NCBI GenBank assembly: GCA_029060065.1
Contig: JAIDUT010000023.1
Span: 14,342-78,341 of the forward strand
Source of the DNA: Clostridia bacterium
Lineage (GTDB): Bacteria > Bacillota > Clostridia > Christensenellales > UBA3700
Length of the DNA stretch: 64,000 nt
Direction: 5' to 3'
Positions 1 through 20,476 of this stretch are shown one piece after another (the stretch's first letter is position 1; the number at the start of each line of letters is the position of its first letter). A program made the position numbers and the translations under genes. A model generated the notes under the pieces. That model was given only the letters and a program-made list of their open reading frames with translations. It had not been told where the DNA came from and did no database searches.

Positions 1-1088
1 TGGCGGATAATCTCATTGCCTTCCGCATTCAAAAACTCTTCTCTCAAGACTTGTTTTTCGCCTTGCGTATATTTATCCCAATTACCGAGTTCTTTCTTCT
101 TTCTCAAGAAAGCATTGAAAGGAGCGGTGTAATTGTTGTCGATTTCAAATTGTTTGACAGCCGTAATAAATTCCGACACGGTATTTGCGCCACGGCAAAC
201 GTTGAGCCTATAGTACTCCTTTTCCTTTTTGTAATCAAGAGTACGGTCTTTATCATCCTTAACGTCGAAGTCGTCGGGATTACCGCCCTTGCAACGTACG
301 AAGTACCAAAGTCGGAACATCTTGTCGAGGTTACCCGAGTGAGGCGTAGCCGAAAGCAACACGCAATATGTCGAGTTGGCTCTCTTCTTAGTCACCATAA
401 GCAACGATAGCAATTTCATTGCCTTTGCGTACTCGCCCTCTTCCGTGCAGAGGTGATGCGCCTCGTCTACGACTACAACGTCGAAAAGCACGTCTTTAAT
501 TTGATTTTCATTCCACTTAACGAAGTCCTCAGTCTTGACGATAACAGGTCTTTTAGGACGTCTTACATATCCGTCGAGAACGTCGTCGCATTCTTCAAAG
601 TTCGGGTCTTTCACTTGCAATAGTACCCCTTCGCCCAGTCCGAAGAGATTTTCCAGTACGTTTATCCAGCTGTCGTATACCTGCGACGGTACGACAAGTA
701 AAAGCGACTTCATCTTGCCTCTCACGGCAAGTTCGCTTAAGATTGCGCACGCCTCGAACGTCTTACCGCTACCCACTACGTCTGCCAAAAGTCCGAATCC
801 TCTCAATTCTTTGAGAAAAATCGTAACCGCCGTCTGCTGTCCTTTGAGAATAGTCTGACCGCCCTTATCGGCAAGAGGAATTATACCGTACTTACCGCCC
901 TGATTCTTGTATACGTCAGGCTTGATTTTGAGCTGAGCAAAGTCATCGTACCTGTCGAGTTCTTCCGCGCACTTAGTCAACGTCGCCATTTTTGCGTCAA
1001 AAGGACGGACCTCTCCCGCTATCTTGGAGCGTTGCACGTCCTTGTCAAATGCGCCGTCGCCACATTTCAACGTAAATTTCTTTCCCAT
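1..1088 (-). CDS. SNF2/RapA-like superfamily-2 helicase, N-terminal ~362 codons (rest of gene lies left of the window)
   Basis: Absent from the ORF track because it runs off the edge. Manual minus-strand translation from ATG at 1088 (SD GGAGGG 5 nt upstream) gives MGKKFTLKCGDGAFDKDVQRSK... It shows helicase motif I LLADVVGSGKTFEA (about nt 745-790), motif II DVVVVDEAHHL (about nt 450-480) and motif III VLLSATPHSGN. The + strand track ORFs 51-410 and 535-858 are its antisense shadows. Confidence 0.75.
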   Translation of the reverse strand, partial: MGKKFTLKCGDGAFDKDVQRSKIAGEVRPFDAKMATLTKCAEELDRYDDFAQLKIKPDVYKNQGGKYGIIPLADKGGQTILKGQQTAVTIFLKELRGFGLLADVVGSGKTFEACAILSELAVRGKMKSLLLVVPSQVYDSWINVLENLFGLGEGVLLQVKDPNFEECDDVLDGYVRRPKRPVIVKTEDFVKWNENQIKDVLFDVVVVDEAHHLCTEEGEYAKAMKLLSLLMVTKKRANSTYCVLLSATPHSGNLDKMFRLWYFVRCKGGNPDDFDVKDDKDRTLDYKKEKEYYRLNVCRGANTVSEFITAVKQFEIDNNYTAPFNAFLRKKKELGNWDKYTQGEKQVLREEFLNAEGNEIIR

Positions 1089-1102
1089 TCTGCCCTCCGC
1101 TC

Positions 1103-3046
1103 TCAATCAGAACTCTCGACTTCAAAGTCGTCGACTCCGCTGAATTTTAATACTATGTTTTCGTAATACGTCTTTTTGGCATATCCTGAAGCTCCGTAAG
1201 GTCTGACGTATATCTCATTAAATCTGCCGTTCTTCATTACGTCGTTGTGTATAAACGGCGTAGCTCTGCCGTCGGCGTCTATCTTAACTCCCTCTCTAAA
1301 GTACAGGATTCCTTGGATTTCTACCCGCTTCAGATTTCCCTTATCCTTGCAGTAGAAAAGAATCTCGCCCTTATTTGCTCCGCCCGACACAACTTTGAGG
1401 TCTATGTCTTTTTCTCTCTGTCTTCTTATATCGCTGTCGGGATCTCCTATTACGTCGCCTTTTTTGCCTATCGTAGTAGAGAAAATCTCTTCGTTTTTCA
1501 CCCTATCCGACCAAGCGTCCCTATAATTGACATACGTCGAGCAAGAATACTCCCCGCCTTTGGGTGGAATAACTCTACCTCTCTCCAAAAAGATGTCGAG
1601 TATCTTTTTGTTTATACTTTTGTTGTACAGCCAAGTACCGTATGAAAGCGCAACCGCCATCTTGAGTTCGTATCCCATAAGCGCTACTATAGCTCCGCCC
1701 ACAGCGGGCGCAAAAGTCGAGTCTTCGTTAGAGAGTATCGTAAAGTTATCGTCTTCGCTCTTGTAGTCGTCGAACGTAATTATGTCTACTCTCAAATCGG
1801 CATTTTTCAACTCTTTGTCGAGATAATCTATCAACCCGTACGTTTCGCTGACTCCGCCCGAAAGCATAATTTTATCTACGTCGCGATTGAGAGTTCTCTT
1901 CAACTCGCTGACTATATAATCGGAAATCTTTTTTGCTACGCCCTCGCTATCCTTTATACCAACGCACTTGAGGAAATCTCCTCTCGTAACTGCGGTCTGT
2001 ACCACAACGTCGCGTTGAATGGACATCGTCACGCCGTCCTTGAAAGCAAGCTCGAAAATATCGTCGTCTAGCGAAAGCGCGGTCTTGGTCTTTTTGATTT
2101 CGTTGAGCGTCAAGAACTGCGTAGAGTGCAATCCTTTTTCGGCAATATATCCGTCCTCTCCCGAAGGTGGCGCGCCAACCGTTTCTCTGTCGGAGATTAC
2201 GCCCTCAACGTAATCTCTTAGCGCATAGTCGAAGTCGTTTCCGCCGATTTCCATGGGCTCGTTGTGTCCGTCTACACCGTCTATTATCATACTTCCCGAC
2301 GAATTTAACGTAAATTTACCGACAGATATATCTTCTTCTCCCATGTCGAAAATAACTACGGCGTCGCCTTTCTTTAACACCTGTCTATGGTAAGCAAAAA
2401 GTCCCAATGCTTTTGTGGACGAGAGAACTTTCTTCATCTCTTTCCCGCAAGCGCGGGTGGCAAGACGTTCGAGTTCTTCTACGTACTCCTTGCCCGCCTT
2501 AGTGGGATATACCAACGAATAATTGATATTTTCAAAGCTGATATCCTTCTCTTTCTGCAATCTTTGAATCGCAGGCATAACAGTCTTTTCTATCAAATAT
2601 CCGAAAAATTCTTGACACACCTCTTGCGGGGTCTTATTCCCCTCAAAGGTCATGTCCAAGTCCTCTGCCTTAGCAAAGTCCTCTGCAAGTTTTTTCCTGT
2701 TGGGAAAATAGAACTTGGGGAACGACTTTTTGTCGTAATAGTATTTTTTATTGCTTACTGTCACTCTTTTATCGCGACGAATTAGCAATAGCGACAGCAA
2801 CGACTTTATCTTAACTACGGTGACGAACGATTTATCTACGTTTTTGTACACCTCATTTCCAAAAAGCCACGTCGACGTATCCTCATCATAGTAAGCAATC
2901 GCGGGAACTATCACGCTCCCCGTTATATCGCAAGGAGCAAGTTTGCCGTATTCAACGCTCTTTTTTGACCCGAAAGCATACGCAACCTTGACGGTATCAC
3001 TGCCAAGGTCAATAGCAACTTCCAAATTCTTAACGAAATTCGTCAT
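1103..3046 (-). CDS. Hsp70/actin-fold (ASKHA) ATPase-like protein with divergent ~190-aa C-terminal domain
   Basis: 647 aa. Motifs are in Hsp70 order: AIDLGSDTVKVAY (phosphate-1), VVIFDMGEEDISVG (phosphate-2), KIMLSGGVSETYG (adenosine) and PAVGGAIVAL (end of NBD). The C-terminal region starts ALSYGTW (SBD-beta-like) and has no helical lid. SD AAGGAG lies 6 nt before the ATG. The stop is 14 nt before the helicase ATG. Confidence 0.7.
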   Translation of the reverse strand: MTNFVKNLEVAIDLGSDTVKVAYAFGSKKSVEYGKLAPCDITGSVIVPAIAYYDEDTSTWLFGNEVYKNVDKSFVTVVKIKSLLSLLLIRRDKRVTVSNKKYYYDKKSFPKFYFPNRKKLAEDFAKAEDLDMTFEGNKTPQEVCQEFFGYLIEKTVMPAIQRLQKEKDISFENINYSLVYPTKAGKEYVEELERLATRACGKEMKKVLSSTKALGLFAYHRQVLKKGDAVVIFDMGEEDISVGKFTLNSSGSMIIDGVDGHNEPMEIGGNDFDYALRDYVEGVISDRETVGAPPSGEDGYIAEKGLHSTQFLTLNEIKKTKTALSLDDDIFELAFKDGVTMSIQRDVVVQTAVTRGDFLKCVGIKDSEGVAKKISDYIVSELKRTLNRDVDKIMLSGGVSETYGLIDYLDKELKNADLRVDIITFDDYKSEDDNFTILSNEDSTFAPAVGGAIVALMGYELKMAVALSYGTWLYNKSINKKILDIFLERGRVIPPKGGEYSCSTYVNYRDAWSDRVKNEEIFSTTIGKKGDVIGDPDSDIRRQREKDIDLKVVSGGANKGEILFYCKDKGNLKRVEIQGILYFREGVKIDADGRATPFIHNDVMKNGRFNEIYVRPYGASGYAKKTYYENIVLKFSGVDDFEVESSD

Positions 3047-3399
3047 ACTCGCTCCTTAATTTTACAGATTCTTTTACAAGATAAATTATAACATAACTGA
3101 AATAAGTTTTCAATATATATTTATATTTATTACTACAAATATTTGGTATATTTTACAAAATTTTCTTGAATGCTCAATATGCGTCGAATTTTGGACTTAT
3201 CAACTAAAATACGATAACTTTTTCCAAGTTCTACATAAAAAATCACAATAAAATTACAAAACTATTGACTAAGACAGAATCTTGGATATACTAATATTGC
3301 ATAGGAAATGTTCCTTTGCGCTATGACATGGCATTAGTGAAATATCTAATGATTTAGAACTTCTGTTACGGCGGGAGTTCATTTTTTATGAAAAAATTA

Positions 3400-3542
3400 T
3401 CTCATTTCGGCGAGAAGCGAGAGGTGCAAGAGATAAAATAAAAAACCGTCACGCTTGCTAGTGCGACGGTTTGAGTTAAATACTGTATTTGGCGGAAAAG
3501 ACGCATATTAGAGTTGCGACTTCTCGCTTTGAACCGAACCTC
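3400..3542 (-). repeat. Copy 1 of a ~140-nt stop-codon-adjacent intergenic module (box A, hairpin, T-tract, box B)
   Basis: Box A at 3483-3517 (CTGTATTTGGCGGAAAAGACGCATATTAGAGTTGC) is near-identical to 16028-16061. Box B at 3406-3424 (TTCGGCGAGAAGCGAGAGG) matches 15923-15943. In both copies there are 12 nt between hairpin and box A, and 25-26 nt between box A and the upstream stop codon. Confidence 0.6.
3436..3472 (-). terminator. Rho-independent terminator of rpsF-ssb-rpsR
   Basis: Minus strand reads ACCGTCGCAC-TAGCAA-GCGTGACGGT followed by TTTTTTATTTT. It sits about 70 nt after the rpsR stop. Confidence 0.7.
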
Positions 3543-3794
3543 TTATTCAGCTACGTATGGAAGCAAAGCCATTTCCCTTGCTCTCTTAACGGCTTCGGTA
3601 ACAATTCTTTGGTGCTTTGCGCACGTACCGCTCATTCTTCTGGGAACAATCTTGCCCTTCTCCGTGATGAACTTGCGCAATTTTGCAACGTCTTTATAAT
3701 CTACTTCGTCCACGCCGTCTGCGCAAAAGATACAAACCTTTTTACGCGCCATAGGCTTTTTTGAAGGACGCTTAACTACCTTTTCTTCGCTCAT
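3543..3794 (-). CDS. rpsR: 30S ribosomal protein S18
   Basis: 83 aa. The stretch [48 protein letters not shown] is typical S18. SD AAGGAG present. Confidence 0.95.
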
Positions 3795-3810: not shown

Positions 3811-4242
3811 TTAAAATGGTAAATCGTCTTCGTCTACGGGAGTCAAACCGCCGGCGTTTCTTCCGCCGTTATTCGAGCCGTATCCGTTATTCTCAGCGCT
3901 CTGAGTGTTGTCGCCGTCAGCTCTGCCGGCGCCGGATGGGAGAAATTCAACTTCATCGGCAATAACGTCGTACGAAGTACGCTTAGAACCGTCGTTTGCC
4001 GTATATTGACTTGTTTGAAGCGAGCCAACGACGCAAACCTTCCTACCTTTCTGCAAATTTTTAGCGCAACTCTCCGCCAAACCTCTCCAGCACGTGATGT
4101 TGAAGAAATCTGCCGTCGTTTCGTTATCTCTGCTAAATCTGCGATTTACAGCGATAGAAAATCTGCAATACTGTACTCCGCTCTGCGTAGTACCTGATTC
4201 CGGATCTCTCGTTAAATTGCCTATAAATATAACTTTGTTCAT
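3811..4242 (-). CDS. ssb: single-stranded DNA-binding protein
   Basis: 143 aa with an OB-fold N-terminus (MNKVIFIGNLTRDPE), a Gly/Asn-rich linker and the acidic tail DEDDLPF. Sits between rpsF and rpsR. Confidence 0.95.
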   Translation of the reverse strand: MNKVIFIGNLTRDPESGTTQSGVQYCRFSIAVNRRFSRDNETTADFFNITCWRGLAESCAKNLQKGRKVCVVGSLQTSQYTANDGSKRTSYDVIADEVEFLPSGAGRADGDNTQSAENNGYGSNNGGRNAGGLTPVDEDDLPF

Positions 4243-4256
4243 AATTTTCTCCTTAA

Positions 4257-4538
4257 TTACTTTTTGATAATCATTGATCTTACGACTTCGTCAGTAATAC
4301 GGTTCAATCTCTTCAGTTCTTCAGGAACGTTAGCAGGAGCCGTAAAGTTTACCAAAACGTAATAGCCTTCAGTGGTGTAGTCGATTGGGTAAGCGTACTT
4401 CTTAGTACCCCACTTATCAGTGCTTTCGATTTCTCCGCCGTTTGACGTGATAACCGAAGCCATTTTGTCAACTACTTCCTGTTTTGCCTCGTCGGTAATA
4501 TCATTCTTGATGATATACAACATTTCGTACTTGCTCAT
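4257..4538 (-). CDS. rpsF: 30S ribosomal protein S6
   Basis: 93 aa, MSKYEMLYIIKNDI...WGTKKYAYPI. SD AAAGGAGG present. Confidence 0.95.
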   Translation of the reverse strand: MSKYEMLYIIKNDITDEAKQEVVDKMASVITSNGGEIESTDKWGTKKYAYPIDYTTEGYYVLVNFTAPANVPEELKRLNRITDEVVRSMIIKK

Positions 4539-7647: not shown

Positions 7648-8814
7648 ATGCGAGTAGAATTGGATAAGAATATAGAAAGGATATTGACAGAGAAATACAT
7701 GCACCGTGACGAACTTCTGAGCGAATACGCCACAAAGGATTCTATGGCAATACGCAAAGACGCCTATACGCCGAAAATCTTCAGACGGCAGTTTATCCGA
7801 GATTGCGAAGTAATCCTAAACTTACCGCTTTTCAACAGATATGCAGGCAAAACTCAAGTTTTCTCACTACTCGACAACGACGATATATCCACTCGCGCTT
7901 ATCACGTACAACTCGTATCGAGAATTGCCCGCACGATAGGCTCGGCGCTTTCGCTCAACTGCGATTTAATAGAGGCTATTGCATTAGCGCACGACCTAGG
8001 TCACTGCCCTTTCGGTCACCGCGGAGAAAAACTGCTCGACAACGTAGCTAAGAGAAACGGATATAGATTTTTCCACCATGTGCAAGGCGCAAGATACCTC
8101 TTGAGCGTAGTTAAAAGCGACTTGTCATTGCAAGTAATCGACGGCGTGCTCTGTCACAACGGCGAAGAGATTTTGCCGTGCTATGCGCCCAACGAAAAGT
8201 CTTGCAGAACTTTCGATGATTTGCAAGAGAAACTCGATTTGGCTTACTTAGGAAAACTCAACGACACCGACCTTATGGCAAGCACCTTAGAGGGCTGTCT
8301 TGTGCGCATATGCGACGTTATAGCATACGTAGGCAAAGACAGACAAGACGCGGAAAGGTTGAGATACGTGCGTTTTAACGACTTCTCCGACACGATATTA
8401 GGCAAATATAATCACGAGATAATTTCTTCCCTCTGCGCCGATATTATAAATAATTCTTTGGGTAAAAATCACATCAAAATGAGCGATAAAGCGTACGACG
8501 CGCTTATGAAAATAAAGGACGAAAACTACGCCTTGATATACAAAGGCGACCACTCTGAAGTTGACGGCTACAGCGAAGATAAATTGCAAAATATCGTAAA
8601 CGACGTATTTAATTTATTACTTGACGACTTAAATAACGATAGAAAAATCATAGACAAATATTATCGTCCGTATATCTACCCCAATACCCCAAAAGTAGAC
8701 GAATACTTTGAAGAAAACAAAGATTTTCCGCATAGAGTTGCAATCGATATGATAGCAAGTATGAGCGATAAGTATCTATTGACGTTCCATGAAAAACACT
8801 GCAAAAACGCTTAA
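7648..8814 (+). CDS. HD-domain dNTP triphosphohydrolase-like protein (dGTPase family)
   Basis: 388 aa. YHVQLVSRIA...AHDLGHCPFGHRGE matches the dGTPase/SAMHD1-type HD motif. Confidence 0.8.
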   Translation: MRVELDKNIERILTEKYMHRDELLSEYATKDSMAIRKDAYTPKIFRRQFIRDCEVILNLPLFNRYAGKTQVFSLLDNDDISTRAYHVQLVSRIARTIGSALSLNCDLIEAIALAHDLGHCPFGHRGEKLLDNVAKRNGYRFFHHVQGARYLLSVVKSDLSLQVIDGVLCHNGEEILPCYAPNEKSCRTFDDLQEKLDLAYLGKLNDTDLMASTLEGCLVRICDVIAYVGKDRQDAERLRYVRFNDFSDTILGKYNHEIISSLCADIINNSLGKNHIKMSDKAYDALMKIKDENYALIYKGDHSEVDGYSEDKLQNIVNDVFNLLLDDLNNDRKIIDKYYRPYIYPNTPKVDEYFEENKDFPHRVAIDMIASMSDKYLLTFHEKHCKNA

Positions 8815-13231: not shown

Positions 13232-14623
13232 ATGGAATGTTATCACTGCGGACAGGAAAACGACGAAGAAGCAATCTACTGCAAACAATGCGGAATGCGC
13301 GTTGACGGCAAAGTCGAATGTCCTTCATGCAACAAACTTATTGACAGCGATTCGCAATTTTGCGGATATTGCGGACACAACTTAGAGGAAAGCTACGCCA
13401 GTGAGGACGACGAAGAAAATACAACTGAGGAGGAAAGTTGTGCGCCAACGAAAATCTTATCCGTTTTTAAGCCGAATTTGAAAAAAGCCAATGAAATCTG
13501 TATCGGCGCTTTTTCTATGTCAACTGTTTTCTTTTCGCTGTTATTCGTATTCTTCGTTGGAATAAAAAGCTATGCAACAAATATTACGGATTCTGATGCA
13601 TATTTGAATACAAACACAAACATAAATTTATTTTATTACCTAGGCGAATGTTATTCGCGCTTAGCCACGTTGGACGAAACTTATCCGTCATACTTCATTG
13701 CTAATTATAAATTTATTTCAATAATGGGCACAATTTTGTCGATAGCAATTATAACAACTGTGCTCGTTTTCTCGATTATATCAGTCGTAAGATACGTAAA
13801 TAATTGCACAGGCAGGTCTGCAAAATCTTACTCAACTCCGGTTCTTGCGACATATGTGTCTTTCGTAATGGGCGTAACGCTTTTCTATGCCTTTAACGCT
13901 GTAAGCGGAAATAACGGATTAATGAAAATGAGCGTTAAACTCAATGAATACACAGTAGCAGGCATAGCTCTTTCCACAGTATTTATGATACTTGCTACCG
14001 TTTGTAGAACCGCATCGTTAGGCAGATTGCTTTCAGCTCCTCAAAACTTGTACAAATCCTGCTTTACGGTATTAGGTCTTATATTATTTGCTTTTATGGC
14101 GTTGCTTGCCGCCTCCCCGTCTATTGTTATGTCTAACGCTAACAATAGTGCATCGTGCAATTTCTTCTATGCAATGACGTTACTAGTTACCGTAGCGATG
14201 GCCAATGATAAATCTGACGCTAGGGAAATTATAAGTTCAGGTATATCATCTTCTGATAATAACGGCGTACCTATGGAAATTTATTCTCAACTCGTAGTGT
14301 CATTACTAATACAAATAGCAATGATAGTCATTATAATCTTAACTATTGCTGTTCTACTGAAAAACCTATCCCACAAAGATAAACAGAGCATCGGCACAAA
14401 CTTGGTAGTAAGTATCATTATTAGCGTGTTATCAATCGTATTTTTAATCGTCACAACCAATGCTGGGAAACAACTAATTGATTACTTTGACAACGATTCT
14501 ACAGAAATTTCTTTCAACACCACAGCTCTTGTTATTCTAGTTATCGTTTGCGTGATTAATTTAGCTATACAAATTATTCATACAGTAATCAACTCAAGAA
14601 TAAAACAACAGCAACTGAAATAA
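13232..14623 (+). CDS. double zinc-ribbon, polytopic membrane protein of unknown function
   Basis: 463 aa. The N-terminus has CxxC pairs (CYHCG...CKQCG...CPSCN...CGYCG), followed by many hydrophobic helices. SD AAGGAGG present. Confidence 0.7.
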   Translation: MECYHCGQENDEEAIYCKQCGMRVDGKVECPSCNKLIDSDSQFCGYCGHNLEESYASEDDEENTTEEESCAPTKILSVFKPNLKKANEICIGAFSMSTVFFSLLFVFFVGIKSYATNITDSDAYLNTNTNINLFYYLGECYSRLATLDETYPSYFIANYKFISIMGTILSIAIITTVLVFSIISVVRYVNNCTGRSAKSYSTPVLATYVSFVMGVTLFYAFNAVSGNNGLMKMSVKLNEYTVAGIALSTVFMILATVCRTASLGRLLSAPQNLYKSCFTVLGLILFAFMALLAASPSIVMSNANNSASCNFFYAMTLLVTVAMANDKSDAREIISSGISSSDNNGVPMEIYSQLVVSLLIQIAMIVIIILTIAVLLKNLSHKDKQSIGTNLVVSIIISVLSIVFLIVTTNAGKQLIDYFDNDSTEISFNTTALVILVIVCVINLAIQIIHTVINSRIKQQQLK

Positions 14624-18556: not shown

Positions 18557-20476
18557 TTAATATTTTCTTGCTTTTTCAAGCATTTGATTTTTCTCTTGCA
18601 AAGCCTCTTCTTGCTTTTTACATCTTGGCTTTTGTGTACAGCCTACGTTCCACCAGCCGTCGTAACCGTGAGTCATAGACTTTGGCAAAACTTTAATGTC
18701 AATAAGCGTAGAAGTCGTCTGCTTTAGACTGTCGGCAATGGCTTCTTCCAGTTCCTTAGCGTTGCGGACGGTGTACGTCACAAAGCCGTAACCCCTTGCG
18801 CTCATAGCATAATCGATATTTAGGAACTTACCGCCTCTAATAGGCTTGTCGCCCTCTCTGTATCTCAATTCGGTACACAGCGAATCCACGCCTTGCCCCA
18901 TTTGCAAATTGTTGATACAGCCAAATGAAGCGTTGTCAAAGAGTAGCACGTTCATTTTGATTCCCTCTTGAATTGCCGTAACCATTTCGGTATGAAGCAT
19001 AAGATAACTGCCGTCACCTACCATAGCGTACACTTCTTTATCGGGACGCGCCATTTTGCTACCCAGACAGCCTGCTATCTCGTAGCCCATACATGAATAG
19101 CCATATTCCATATTGTAGCTATCCTTCTCATCGCTCGTCCACATTCTCTGCAAATCTCCCGGCAAACTTCCTGCCGAGCCTACGATAATAGCGTCGCTTG
19201 GAATACATCGTCTTATTATTCCTATCGCAGTAGTCTGCGCCATCGCTTCGCCGTGTTCCTTGACAAAGTTCTCCACTACGTCAGGCATGTGCGCGTCGAT
19301 TTCAGGCTTGTAATTTTTATCAACCTCGATATGGGTAAGTCTATCCATTTCCTTTTCCCAATCGGCTTTAGCCTTTGCAATCTGCGTAGTATATCCGCTC
19401 TTGTAATCTCCGAGCAAACCGTCCAATGCTATTATGCCTGCTTTTGCGTCGCCGACAGCTTTAATCGCGTCAAGTTTGGACGCATGGAAAGCCGACATAT
19501 TCAAAGTGACTACTTTCTTATCCGCATATAGCGACTTTGAAGCCGTCGTAAAGTCTGTAAACCTCGTACCTACGGCTATTATCAAATCGCAAGCCTTTGC
19601 AAGCGTATTAGCCGAACTGTTGCCTGTGACGCCAAGTCCGCCGACGTTGAGCGGGTGCGACGACTTGATTGCAGTCTTGCCTGCTTGCGTTTCGCAGAAC
19701 GGTATATTACGTCTTTCGCAGAATTCAGCTACAACCTCTCCAGCCTCGCTGTATTTAACACCACCGCCTACGATTAGAAGAGGCTTTTTACTGCTCTTTA
19801 TCGCATTTGCCAAATCTTCAAGTTCTTCCTTGACAGGCGTGGGGCGAGTGATTCTATGTACTCTCTTCTTGAGAAAATCAGCCGGAAAATCATATACTTC
19901 GCCTTGCACGTCCTGTGGCATTGCAATAGCCACTGCGCCCGTATGCGCAGGGTCGAGTAATACTCTCATGGCGTTGAGCATTGCGCTCATAAGCATTTCG
20001 GGACGGGAAACTCTGTCGAAGTATCTCGTCACTGCTTTGAAAGCGTCGTTGGTAGTAACACTCGCATTGTAAGGCTGTTCTATCTGTTGAAGCACAGGGT
20101 CGGGTTGTCGGGTCGCAAAGGTATCGCCCATAAAGAGCAAAAGCGGTATATTGTTTGCCGTAGCCGTACCCGCCGAAGTCACCATATTAGCCGCGCCAGG
20201 TCCGATAGACGACACGCATGGCATAATCTTACGTCTATTGTTTTGCTTTGCGTACGCGATAGCCACTTGCGACATACCCTGCTCATTTTTACCTTGATAG
20301 ACCTTGAGCGAATGCTTGCCCATTGAAAGCGCCTCGCCTATACCAAGTACGCAACCGTGACCGAAAATGGTGAATATACCTTCTACAAACTTAGTTTCTT
20401 CACCGTCAAAACTGACATATTGATTGTCCAAAAATTTTACGACGGCTTCGCCTACGCTCATTCTTTCACTCTTCAT
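18557..20476 (-). CDS. iolD: 3D-(3,5/4)-trihydroxycyclohexane-1,2-dione acylhydrolase (ThDP enzyme)
   Basis: 639 aa ThDP-dependent enzyme with a GDGSYLM motif, in iol context. Confidence 0.9.
   Translation of the reverse strand: MKSERMSVGEAVVKFLDNQYVSFDGEETKFVEGIFTIFGHGCVLGIGEALSMGKHSLKVYQGKNEQGMSQVAIAYAKQNNRRKIMPCVSSIGPGAANMVTSAGTATANNIPLLLFMGDTFATRQPDPVLQQIEQPYNASVTTNDAFKAVTRYFDRVSRPEMLMSAMLNAMRVLLDPAHTGAVAIAMPQDVQGEVYDFPADFLKKRVHRITRPTPVKEELEDLANAIKSSKKPLLIVGGGVKYSEAGEVVAEFCERRNIPFCETQAGKTAIKSSHPLNVGGLGVTGNSSANTLAKACDLIIAVGTRFTDFTTASKSLYADKKVVTLNMSAFHASKLDAIKAVGDAKAGIIALDGLLGDYKSGYTTQIAKAKADWEKEMDRLTHIEVDKNYKPEIDAHMPDVVENFVKEHGEAMAQTTAIGIIRRCIPSDAIIVGSAGSLPGDLQRMWTSDEKDSYNMEYGYSCMGYEIAGCLGSKMARPDKEVYAMVGDGSYLMLHTEMVTAIQEGIKMNVLLFDNASFGCINNLQMGQGVDSLCTELRYREGDKPIRGGKFLNIDYAMSARGYGFVTYTVRNAKELEEAIADSLKQTTSTLIDIKVLPKSMTHGYDGWWNVGCTQKPRCKKQEEALQEKNQMLEKARKY

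Follow-up and report, generated by a model that had tools for sequence, protein, structure and literature searches.

An Hsp70-like ATPase gene directly followed by a helicase gene, behind an AT-rich spacer and beside ribosomal protein genes, raises the question whether such a pair marks a recently acquired defence island. The pair lies at the left edge of a 64,000-nucleotide stretch of contig JAIDUT010000023.1 from a Clostridia bacterium (positions 14,342 to 78,341 of the contig; the whole stretch is referred to as the window). Both genes, here named g1 and g2, are encoded on the minus strand, and g2 runs off the edge. An initial annotation, made from the letters alone, had proposed a candidate conflict or defence module in DNA of deviant composition beside core genes. 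Our analysis supported the pair and rejected the island. The pairing of g1 and g2 is obligate and heads an operon of 8 to 10 genes that appears to be undescribed. This operon is not a recently acquired island; a small group of gut Clostridia carries it as a fixed part of the chromosome. A conflict role can still be entertained, on grounds other than the island rationale, and is the reading that we tentatively favour below.

The pairing itself was found to be invariable, even in the most distant member of the family. An exhaustive profile search with the g1 family recovered relatives in 224 clusters among 1.84 billion representative proteins, 154 of them at E<=1e-30. The family was seen solely in this operon context, and neither a lone g1 nor a lone g2 orthologue was seen. 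Two further genes, g3 and g4, follow the pair wherever the contig extends, and g5 to g8 are present in every locus reaching that far. Even at 23-33% identity, in the most distant member, the order g1-g2-g3-g4 is kept, with a g4 product of 2273 aa. The cassette occurs in 23 species-representative genomes, all of them metagenome-assembled genomes of uncultured Christensenella-, Christensenellaceae- or Ca. Borkfalkia-type Clostridia from gut samples. Its gene content is modular. Every relative with a g1 at least 54% identical to that of the window has the 8-gene form, a 9-gene form carries one extra protein of ~620-650 aa, and a 10-gene form has this protein and a superfamily 1 (SF1) helicase of ~1500 aa, both encoded between g6 and g7.

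The motifs quoted in the initial annotation for the g1 open reading frame (ORF), namely AIDLGSDTVKVAY, VVIFDMGEEDISVG, KIMLSGGVSETYG, PAVGGAIVAL and ALSYGTW, are all present at 1103-3046 on the minus strand. In a family alignment of 32 g1 members the phosphate-1, phosphate-2 and adenosine motifs of the ASKHA superfamily are conserved in canonical order, with GEE in place of GGG in the phosphate-2 motif. Sequence comparisons alone gave weak signals. Against the Pfam HSP70 model (PF00012) g1 scored 12.6 bits (E 0.039), under the cut-off of 20.6, and the Pfam matches to BcrAD and PilM were equally weak. Nothing meaningful was found in PADLOC and NCBIfam, and the family profile matched only the nucleotide-binding domain (NBD) of DnaK among the PDB sequences (E 0.03). 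The AlphaFold model of g1 (pLDDT 85, pTM 0.81) was more informative. In a Foldseek search against PDB its top 50 matches were all two-domain Hsp70s (BiP, DnaK, Hsc70, Hsp110/Sse1 and Ssb), with E ~1e-21, ~650 aligned columns and 13-16% identity. Judged by this predicted structure rather than by sequence, g1 is a very divergent Hsp70 fold.

In the model an actin-like nucleotide-binding domain extends to about residue 455 and is followed by a beta-rich domain to residue 636. A profile of residues 452-647 found no match to a substrate-binding domain (SBD) among the PDB sequences. However, the best Foldseek matches were two-domain proteins and not the many NBD-only entries, which suggests that the C-terminal domain contributes to the similarity. 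Homology of residues ~455-647 to the beta-rich part of the substrate-binding domain (SBD-beta) is therefore likely but indirect, as far as the model goes. The domain of g1 is longer and richer in strands than SBD-beta of canonical Hsp70s. The absence of a helical lid, stated in the initial annotation, agrees with the model, which has none. The annotation also noted the lack of any EEVD tail; a conserved acidic C-terminus, GV[DE][DE]F[DE]VE..D, is evident in the family alignment. No dnaJ or grpE partner had been noted, and indeed neither a DnaJ nor a GrpE domain was found among the operon proteins.

It had also been argued that g1 is not the housekeeping DnaK. This is in agreement with the 224 clusters recovered, since the family profile reached no canonical Hsp70 among the 1.84 billion representatives; by this search the g1 family is small and sharply isolated. 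A canonical dnaK operon was not noticed in the window. An ORF of 639 aa at 18557-20476 on the minus strand was considered as the housekeeping DnaK and rejected, as it encodes a thiamine-diphosphate enzyme of the acetolactate-synthase/IolD type.

The second gene had been read by manual translation. Its helicase motifs DVVGSGKT, VVVDEAHH and LLSATPHSGN were recovered within the 362 codons at the window edge, and this fragment scored 49.5 bits against the Pfam SNF2-rel_dom model (cut-off 24.9). The full-length protein, taken from the metagenome contig L001, gave 47.1 bits for SNF2-rel_dom and 40.4 bits for Helicase_C. Motifs I, II, III and VI (GSGKT, DEAHH, SAT and QRIGRVFRLGQ) are intact. With scores above the thresholds of both PF00176 and PF00271, g2 is by sequence a bona fide member of the SNF2 family. 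Its C-terminal tail contains 23 cysteines in residues 687-911, arranged as Zn ribbons. The nearest solved relative is RapA (3e-12), and the best PADLOC matches were the defence-related SNF2 helicases BrxHI/HII, DrmD, HmaA and DpdE, with generic scores at the level of the domain.

Between the two genes, the g1 stop codon TGA (1105-1103) and the next ATG (1088-1086) are separated by the 14-nt gap with its Shine-Dalgarno sequence that had been reported. An alternative TTG start of g2 in the ORF list of L001 overlaps the g1 stop codon (TTGA). Translational coupling of g1 and g2, as proposed in the initial annotation, may be read from this spacing.

The remainder of the operon had been expected to the left of the window and was read on L001, a 92.8-kb contig which encodes the exact g1 protein and matches the window with 98.6% identity along 9 kb. 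Six genes follow the pair there. All eight are tightly packed, with stop and start codons overlapping or nearly abutting (Table 1).

Table 1. Features of the g1-g2 locus in the window and products of the genes that follow on contig L001
Feature	Position in window	Strand	Length	Description and basis
g1, Hsp70-like ATPase ORF	1103-3046	-	647 aa	ORF list and motifs
g2, start of SNF2 translocase	1-1088	-	first 362 codons of 937 aa	translation; runs off the window edge
g1/g2 junction	1089-1102	-	14 nt	Shine-Dalgarno GGAGGG; sequence read directly
Leader and promoter region of the operon	3047-3198	-		conserved; promoter scan and alignment of relatives
Variable AT-rich rpsR-operon junction	3199-3529	none		blastn breakpoints at 3198 and 3530
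Intrinsic terminator of rpsF-ssb-rpsR	3430-3472	-		13-nt arms, 4-nt loop, T-run
rpsR	3543-3794	-		housekeeping block upstream of operon; ORFs, Pfam labels in L001
ssb	3811-4242	-		housekeeping block upstream of operon; ORFs, Pfam labels in L001
rpsF	4257-4538	-		housekeeping block upstream of operon; ORFs, Pfam labels in L001
g3			548 aa	Zn-ribbon-rich; at least 3 conserved CxxC pairs in family alignment
g4			1094 aa	~6 transmembrane helices in residues 26-173; extracellular remainder with MBG repeats
g5			381 aa	N-terminal CxxC...CPxC ribbon; weak Sel1/TPR-like repeat similarity; C-domain with invariant F-x-DDD
g6			~497 aa	coiled-coil similarity only
g7			~250 aa	helical; low-complexity Ser/Gly/Ala-rich linker; conserved C-terminal peptide INIDDIV or DISDIL
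g8			381 aa	single classical-clade AAA+ domain; ~95-aa helical N-domain; Walker A GAPGTGKT, Walker B DECE

The g3 profile showed weak Zn-ribbon similarity only, and its homologues (38 clusters) all belong to the operon family. The possibility of a hidden nuclease in g3 was discarded, since its model (pLDDT 77) had no fold match in PDB and BFVD (best E 0.02, TM <0.15). Zn-ribbon arrays are found both in the SNF2 tail of g2 and in g3. In g4 the transmembrane helices are confined to the N-terminus, and the extracellular region comprises ~900-2100 aa across the family. The total length of g4 ranges from 975 to 2273 aa among the loci. Profile searches with g5, g6 and g7 yielded nothing informative, in the case of g7 including a search against PDB, and all 85 clusters of g7 homologues fall within the operon family. 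The C-termini of g1 (GVDDFEVESSD, window 1103-1141) and g7 (L010 12662-13414) are both acidic-hydrophobic and conserved. A role of these peptides in docking, onto either the Sel1/TPR-like repeats of g5 or the helical N-domain of g8, is possible.

The product of g8 has an intact pore loop (KSYVG) and the second region of homology. It matched the D2 ring of VAT/p97 with 4e-66, and scored 153 bits against the NCBIfam model CDC48, 131 bits against CdvC and 113 bits against IetA, all far under the family cut-offs. This protein is a single-ring AAA+ unfoldase similar to Cdc48-D2 and VAT. A pair of g7 and g8 resembling ESCRT-III and Vps4 was considered as a tentative idea; Cdc48/VAT outscores CdvC for g8, and the g7 profile search was empty. 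All three ATPases of the operon (g1, g2 and g8) have intact catalytic motifs.

The nuclease or methylase that the initial annotation expected in the rest of the operon is absent from the clade of the window. A helicase-nuclease was found only in more distant versions, of which at least 8 loci carry the ~1500-aa SF1 protein inside the operon. Its architecture comprises DUF4011, AAA_11, AAA_12 and MTES_1575. It is homologous to the anti-phage proteins Hhe, ProA and PDC-S37, and scored 397 bits against PADLOC PDC-S37, 183-273 bits against Hhe and 405 bits against the NCBIfam anti-phage model ProA; the equivalog cut-offs of NCBIfam were not reached (405 vs 1500 for ProA, 273 vs 2000 for Hhe). The other additional protein, of ~620-660 aa (L023 12643-14592), is limited to the 9- and 10-gene forms and has an invariant HExxH motif (H569, E570 and H573) with an invariant downstream Glu. 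This resembles a zinc-metalloprotease signature, although no match was obtained in Pfam, PADLOC, NCBIfam or PDB. An assignment of this protein as a second Hsp70-like paralogue was dismissed, the hhalign probability being 0.1%.

The rationale for an island was based on deviant composition beside core genes, and the initial annotation had named universal conservation of the pair at this locus, with housekeeping neighbours, as an outcome that would refute it. The rationale was not supported. Only the spacer is AT-rich; the genes have 45% GC, and the GC content of the operon equals that of its flanks in six genomes spanning 42-58%. Downstream of rpsF-ssb-rpsR the pair was present in every readable related contig, down to 54% g1 identity, with contig L048, a possible deletion, as the only exception. 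The complete upstream block (GH38, YgjP, HD, M20, gltX, rpsF, ssb and rpsR) is retained at 54% identity, and of the 14 close-clade loci 10 have a major facilitator superfamily (MFS) transporter gene 3' of the operon. Between L001 and L033, g1 and GltX are each 91% identical. The ratios of nonsynonymous to synonymous substitution rates (dN/dS) for this pair of contigs were 0.05 for g1, 0.036 for g2, 0.034 for g3, 0.056 for g5, 0.08 for g6, 0.07 for g7 and 0.026 for g8, compared to 0.049 and 0.06 for the flanking gltX and M20 peptidase genes, respectively. The fastest-evolving component is g4, with 0.16-0.17 vs 0.03-0.08 for the other genes. At larger distance, between L001 and L043, the operon proteins are 34-67% identical and the neighbouring cellular proteins 46-86%, so that the divergence of the operon is within the range of its cellular neighbours. 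In other genera the operon is located at other sites, next to ABC transporter genes, a PAP2 phosphatase gene, FAD/ferredoxin genes, or spo0A together with a small pair of nucleotidyltransferase (NTase)/HEPN-like genes.

The AT-rich spacer itself is real. The region 3047-3440 (394 nt) has 27.7% GC vs 40.9% for the window, and the terminator reported for the rpsR operon was confirmed as a hairpin at 3443-3472 with a subsequent T-run. Yet ~12 intergenic segments of the window, this one among them, are equally rich in AT, and ~5% of all 300-nt windows have a GC content at or below 31%. It is therefore ordinary intergenic DNA and not exceptional. A search of the spacer region against Rfam gave no family match.

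Within the spacer two parts can be distinguished. The 150 nt 5' of g1 are conserved among 10 relatives, with g1 identities as low as 63%. They include a near-consensus promoter located ~38 nt 5' of the g1 start, with the -35 box TTGAAA (3113-3108), a spacing of 17 nt, and the -10 box TATAAT (3090-3085) in a TG-n-TATAAT arrangement. This corresponds to a match of 11/12 positions in the promoter scan. The leader contains AAGGAG as the Shine-Dalgarno sequence of g1. Just upstream of the -35 box, at 3160-3134 on the minus strand, the block TTTTGTAAAATATACCAAATATTTGTA carries two TTTGTAA direct repeats ~21 nt apart, i.e. about two helical turns. This block is better conserved than much of the coding sequence and is a candidate operator or UP element. 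The other part, 3199-3529, was not alignable in blastn with relatives that are 86% identical elsewhere. A terminator-like hairpin with a T-run is found inside this variable junction at window 3357-3380 on the plus strand, oriented towards rpsR, with no plus-strand gene evident upstream.

This junction is an insertion hotspot. In L032, L035 and L036 (6489-10376) it contains an insert of three genes, coding for a 585-aa protein with fragments of the PolIII-alpha finger and an NTPase, a 281-aa orphan, and a 373-379-aa orphan. In L034 and L049 (6425-11288) a Tn7-like element with genes for a 115-aa protein, a TnsB-like protein, TniB and TniQ directly follows rpsR; this position suggests that an attachment site lies downstream of the gene. 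None of the hotspot inserts had a PADLOC match. In contig L048 (ena:ERZ13410598 NODE_63) a truncated tnsB (504/596 aa) is joined at 8270-8280 to the g6/g7 spacer, and only g7 and g8 are left. The left part of L048 is 100% identical to a Tn7-bearing strain and the right part 99.95% identical to L010. Either g1-g6 and most of the transposon were lost in a natural deletion, or the contig is an assembly chimera over the ~11-nt overlap. This contig provides the only hint that g1-g6 may be dispensable.

That no named system fits the pair, as stated in the initial annotation, was confirmed by PADLOC v2 and the NCBIfam antiphage models, which gave generic helicase-domain scores only for the pair and generic ATPase or helicase-domain matches only for the operon proteins as a whole. 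For g2 the equivalog scores were about ten times under the cut-offs, with 62.5 bits vs 610 for DrmD, 51 bits vs 500 for DpdE, and 56.3 bits vs 576 for the NCBIfam RapA model. The scores of ~100 bits against BrxHI/HII and 48 bits against ZorD likewise reflect generic similarity of the helicase domain. The SNF2-rel_dom and Helicase_C core is common to g2, RapA and the defence SNF2 helicases, but the C-terminal array of ~23 cysteines is unique to g2. We found no paper on a combination of an Hsp70-like protein with an SNF2 protein.

In its general layout the operon is similar to the multi-ATPase, helicase-containing defence operons DISARM, BREX, Dpd, Zorya and CoCoNuT. The differences are considerable. 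DISARM would require DrmA/B (DUF1998) and a methyltransferase, none of which is present among the operon proteins, and the DrmD score is far below its cut-off. No match to PglX, PglZ or BrxC of BREX was obtained, and the DpdE-level score of g2 was the only match to Dpd. Type III CoCoNuT systems, which are derived from McrBC, include CnuD, an Hsp70-like protein with NBD and SBD and a predicted role in conflict, next to the McrB-like NxD GTPase CnuB, the DUF2357 protein CnuC, and HEPN or other RNases (Bell et al., eLife 2024; PMC11090510). With these the operon shares a divergent, lid-less Hsp70-like NBD/SBD protein in a multi-ATPase context, and some CoCoNuT extensions carry Cdc48/SpoVK-like AAA+ proteins (PMC11090510). 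However, McrB GTPase, McrC/DUF2357, HEPN, CnuH helicase, vWA and TerY-P are missing from the 8-10 operon proteins, and g1 is partnered by an SNF2 translocase and by a membrane protein of the cell surface; CnuD and g1 were compared by description. Hsp70-like proteins are also predicted parts of DO-GTPase defence systems (PMC7159879). CoCoNuT CnuD, the DO-GTPase/tubulin/Hsp70 systems and ARMADA were rejected as architectures for this operon.

Zorya serves as a working analogy, because a membrane component is encoded together with a cytoplasmic SNF2-type DNA motor and the system has been proposed to act on invading DNA in response to an event at the envelope (PMC11946911). In contrast to Zorya, g4 had no ZorA/ZorB match in PADLOC and has a huge extracellular domain instead of a cytoplasmic tail, and Zorya has neither an Hsp70-like protein nor an AAA+ unfoldase. 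The helicase-nuclease of the 10-gene form shares the DUF4011 SF1 helicase and C-terminal restriction endonuclease-like architecture with Hhe, ProA and PDC-S37. The known examples are single-gene systems, whereas here the gene is embedded in a 10-gene operon and absent from the clade of the window. The Walker motifs, pore loop and second region of homology of g8 are shared with Cdc48/p97/VAT D2, CdvC/Vps4 and IetA/IteA, but the operon has no IetS protease partner and no recognizable ESCRT-III partner.

We tentatively interpret the operon as a membrane-anchored, multi-ATPase, DNA-directed conflict machine acting against phages or mobile DNA, with a probability of roughly 45%. This reading is favoured because of the embedded Hhe/ProA-like helicase-nuclease, the modular make-up of the operon, a surface component that evolves fast, and the Hsp70-like precedents in conflict systems (PMC11090510, PMC7159879). 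In such a machine g1-g8 would form one membrane-anchored complex, in which the surface protein g4 would report an envelope event. The gene g4 lies between g3 and g5 and overlaps both at the stop and start codons, so that these Zn-ribbon adaptors probably form a bridge from g4 to the cytoplasmic motors and would tether the motors to the surface protein. The Hsp70-like g1 and the AAA+ protein g8 would remodel or release an auto-inhibited assembly. For the acidic tails of g1 and g7, possible docking sites are the TPR-like repeats of g5 or the N-domain of g8, by analogy with EEVD-TPR and MIM-MIT contacts. The SNF2 motor g2 would then translocate on incoming DNA, resulting in protein stripping or a replication block, and in the 10-gene form the helicase-nuclease would destroy the DNA. 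The clade of the window would have a reduced 8-gene form which is fixed in the chromosome and lacks a recognizable nuclease.

Several observations weigh against a conflict machine. The 8-gene form contains no recognizable effector, be it a nuclease, toxin or pore-former, and an extracellular domain of 900-2100 aa is unusual for a defence component. No PADLOC match was found for 6 of the 8 operon proteins. The operon is inherited vertically at one locus between housekeeping genes, with gltX-like divergence and dN/dS and with the GC content of the host. It is not flanked by mobile-element or recognized defence genes in any of the five genomic contexts, and no relatives were found in the viral contigs of IMG/VR, the INPHARED phages or the PLSDB plasmids. 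Furthermore, its promoter looks strong, constitutive and of the sigma-A type. Most of these points would be expected if the operon encoded a lineage-specific cellular machine without immune function, which we regard as a less probable but serious explanation. Such a machine might perform insertion, extraction or quality control of g4 by the Hsp70-like and Cdc48-like proteins, couple DNA to the envelope in uptake, export or chromosome-membrane tethering, or be a novel protein-translocation system with g6 or g7 as substrates. It would account for the fixed place downstream of rpsF-ssb-rpsR with whole upstream synteny at 54% g1 identity and a frequent MFS transporter gene 3' (10/14 loci), for dN/dS values of 0.03-0.08 as in flanking housekeeping genes, for the block conserved upstream of the promoter, for metabolic or transport genes as neighbours, and for two protein-remodelling ATPases and Sel1-like repeats beside a polytopic membrane protein. 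However, it leaves an SNF2 DNA translocase with intact motifs unexplained and fits poorly with a family that is extremely rare (224 clusters/1.84e9), varies in locus between genera, contains a defence-type helicase-nuclease in divergent lineages, and has apparently lost g1-g6 in one contig (L048).

The remaining two explanations are far weaker. A recently acquired conflict island or mobile-element cargo in deviant DNA, as suggested by the initial annotation, could draw on the 27.7% GC of the spacer and on the hotspot between rpsR and g1 with its Tn7-like element and 3-gene insert. This explanation fails because of the host-like GC in six genomes, the synteny kept down to 54% identity, and a divergence and dN/dS similar to those of the neighbours. 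In addition, no integrase, transposase or flanking repeats are associated with the operon, the hotspot inserts lie outside of it and lack PADLOC matches, and the spacer is ordinary for the genome. We consider a recent island very unlikely. Least credible of all is the chance adjacency of a specialized DnaK paralogue and a RapA-like factor for recycling of RNA polymerase that function independently. The Hsp70 fold of g1, RapA as the nearest solved relative of g2 (3e-12) and the 56 bits in the NCBIfam RapA model would be in line with it. But this score compares with a cut-off of 576, g1 fails to reach the threshold of Pfam HSP70 and lacks a lid as well as a J-protein or GrpE partner, and the pair always occurs with g3-g4, and with g5-g8 where the contig reaches, with overlapping stops and starts. 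Moreover, the Hsp70-like family is confined to this operon context.

If the operon is a conflict machine, it would be the first system in which a surface receptor and an SNF2 DNA translocase are combined with both an Hsp70-type chaperone and a Cdc48-type unfoldase. The idea that chaperones act in bacterial immunity would be broadened, and the operon would give an example of a defence-like system that has become vertically fixed. If it has a cellular function, it would point to a novel envelope or DNA process confined to Christensenellales-like gut bacteria. Hardly any members of this group are in culture, many of their genes are uncharacterized, and the group has a link to host health. A bolder proposal, which we judge rather unlikely at present, is a new class of envelope-coupled machine, in which a rapidly evolving surface receptor is wired via Zn-ribbon adaptors to three motors, namely an Hsp70-like chaperone, a Cdc48-like unfoldase and an SNF2 DNA translocase. 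Protein-remodelling ATPases would then gate a DNA motor at the membrane. This would represent either an immune system that one bacterial family has adopted as a fixed core function, or a new way of handling DNA at the cell surface, and 5 of the 8 core proteins would be new families (g3, the cytoplasmic and transmembrane part of g4, the C-domain of g5, g6 and g7). At least 4 of the 8 operon proteins have no detectable relatives outside the operon. Both the conflict and the cellular reading provide a coherent, testable gene set, whose eight proteins are inherited together and under strong purifying selection. The locus also illustrates that an AT-rich spacer beside core genes is a tempting mark of an island from which the wrong inference can be drawn, as corrected here.

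Additional genes directly precede the operon in some lineages. In one genus (L006 9149-9839, L007 6099-6882) a pair of genes for an NTP_transf_2/Polbeta nucleotidyltransferase and an NTase_sub_bind protein, resembling a toxin-antitoxin module, is located immediately upstream; it is the only conflict-type neighbour across all contexts. On two independent contigs (L038 2114-2362 and L039 280-528), which carry the operon version that diverges most, an 82-aa stand-alone GIY-YIG protein is encoded directly 5' of the Hsp70-like gene.

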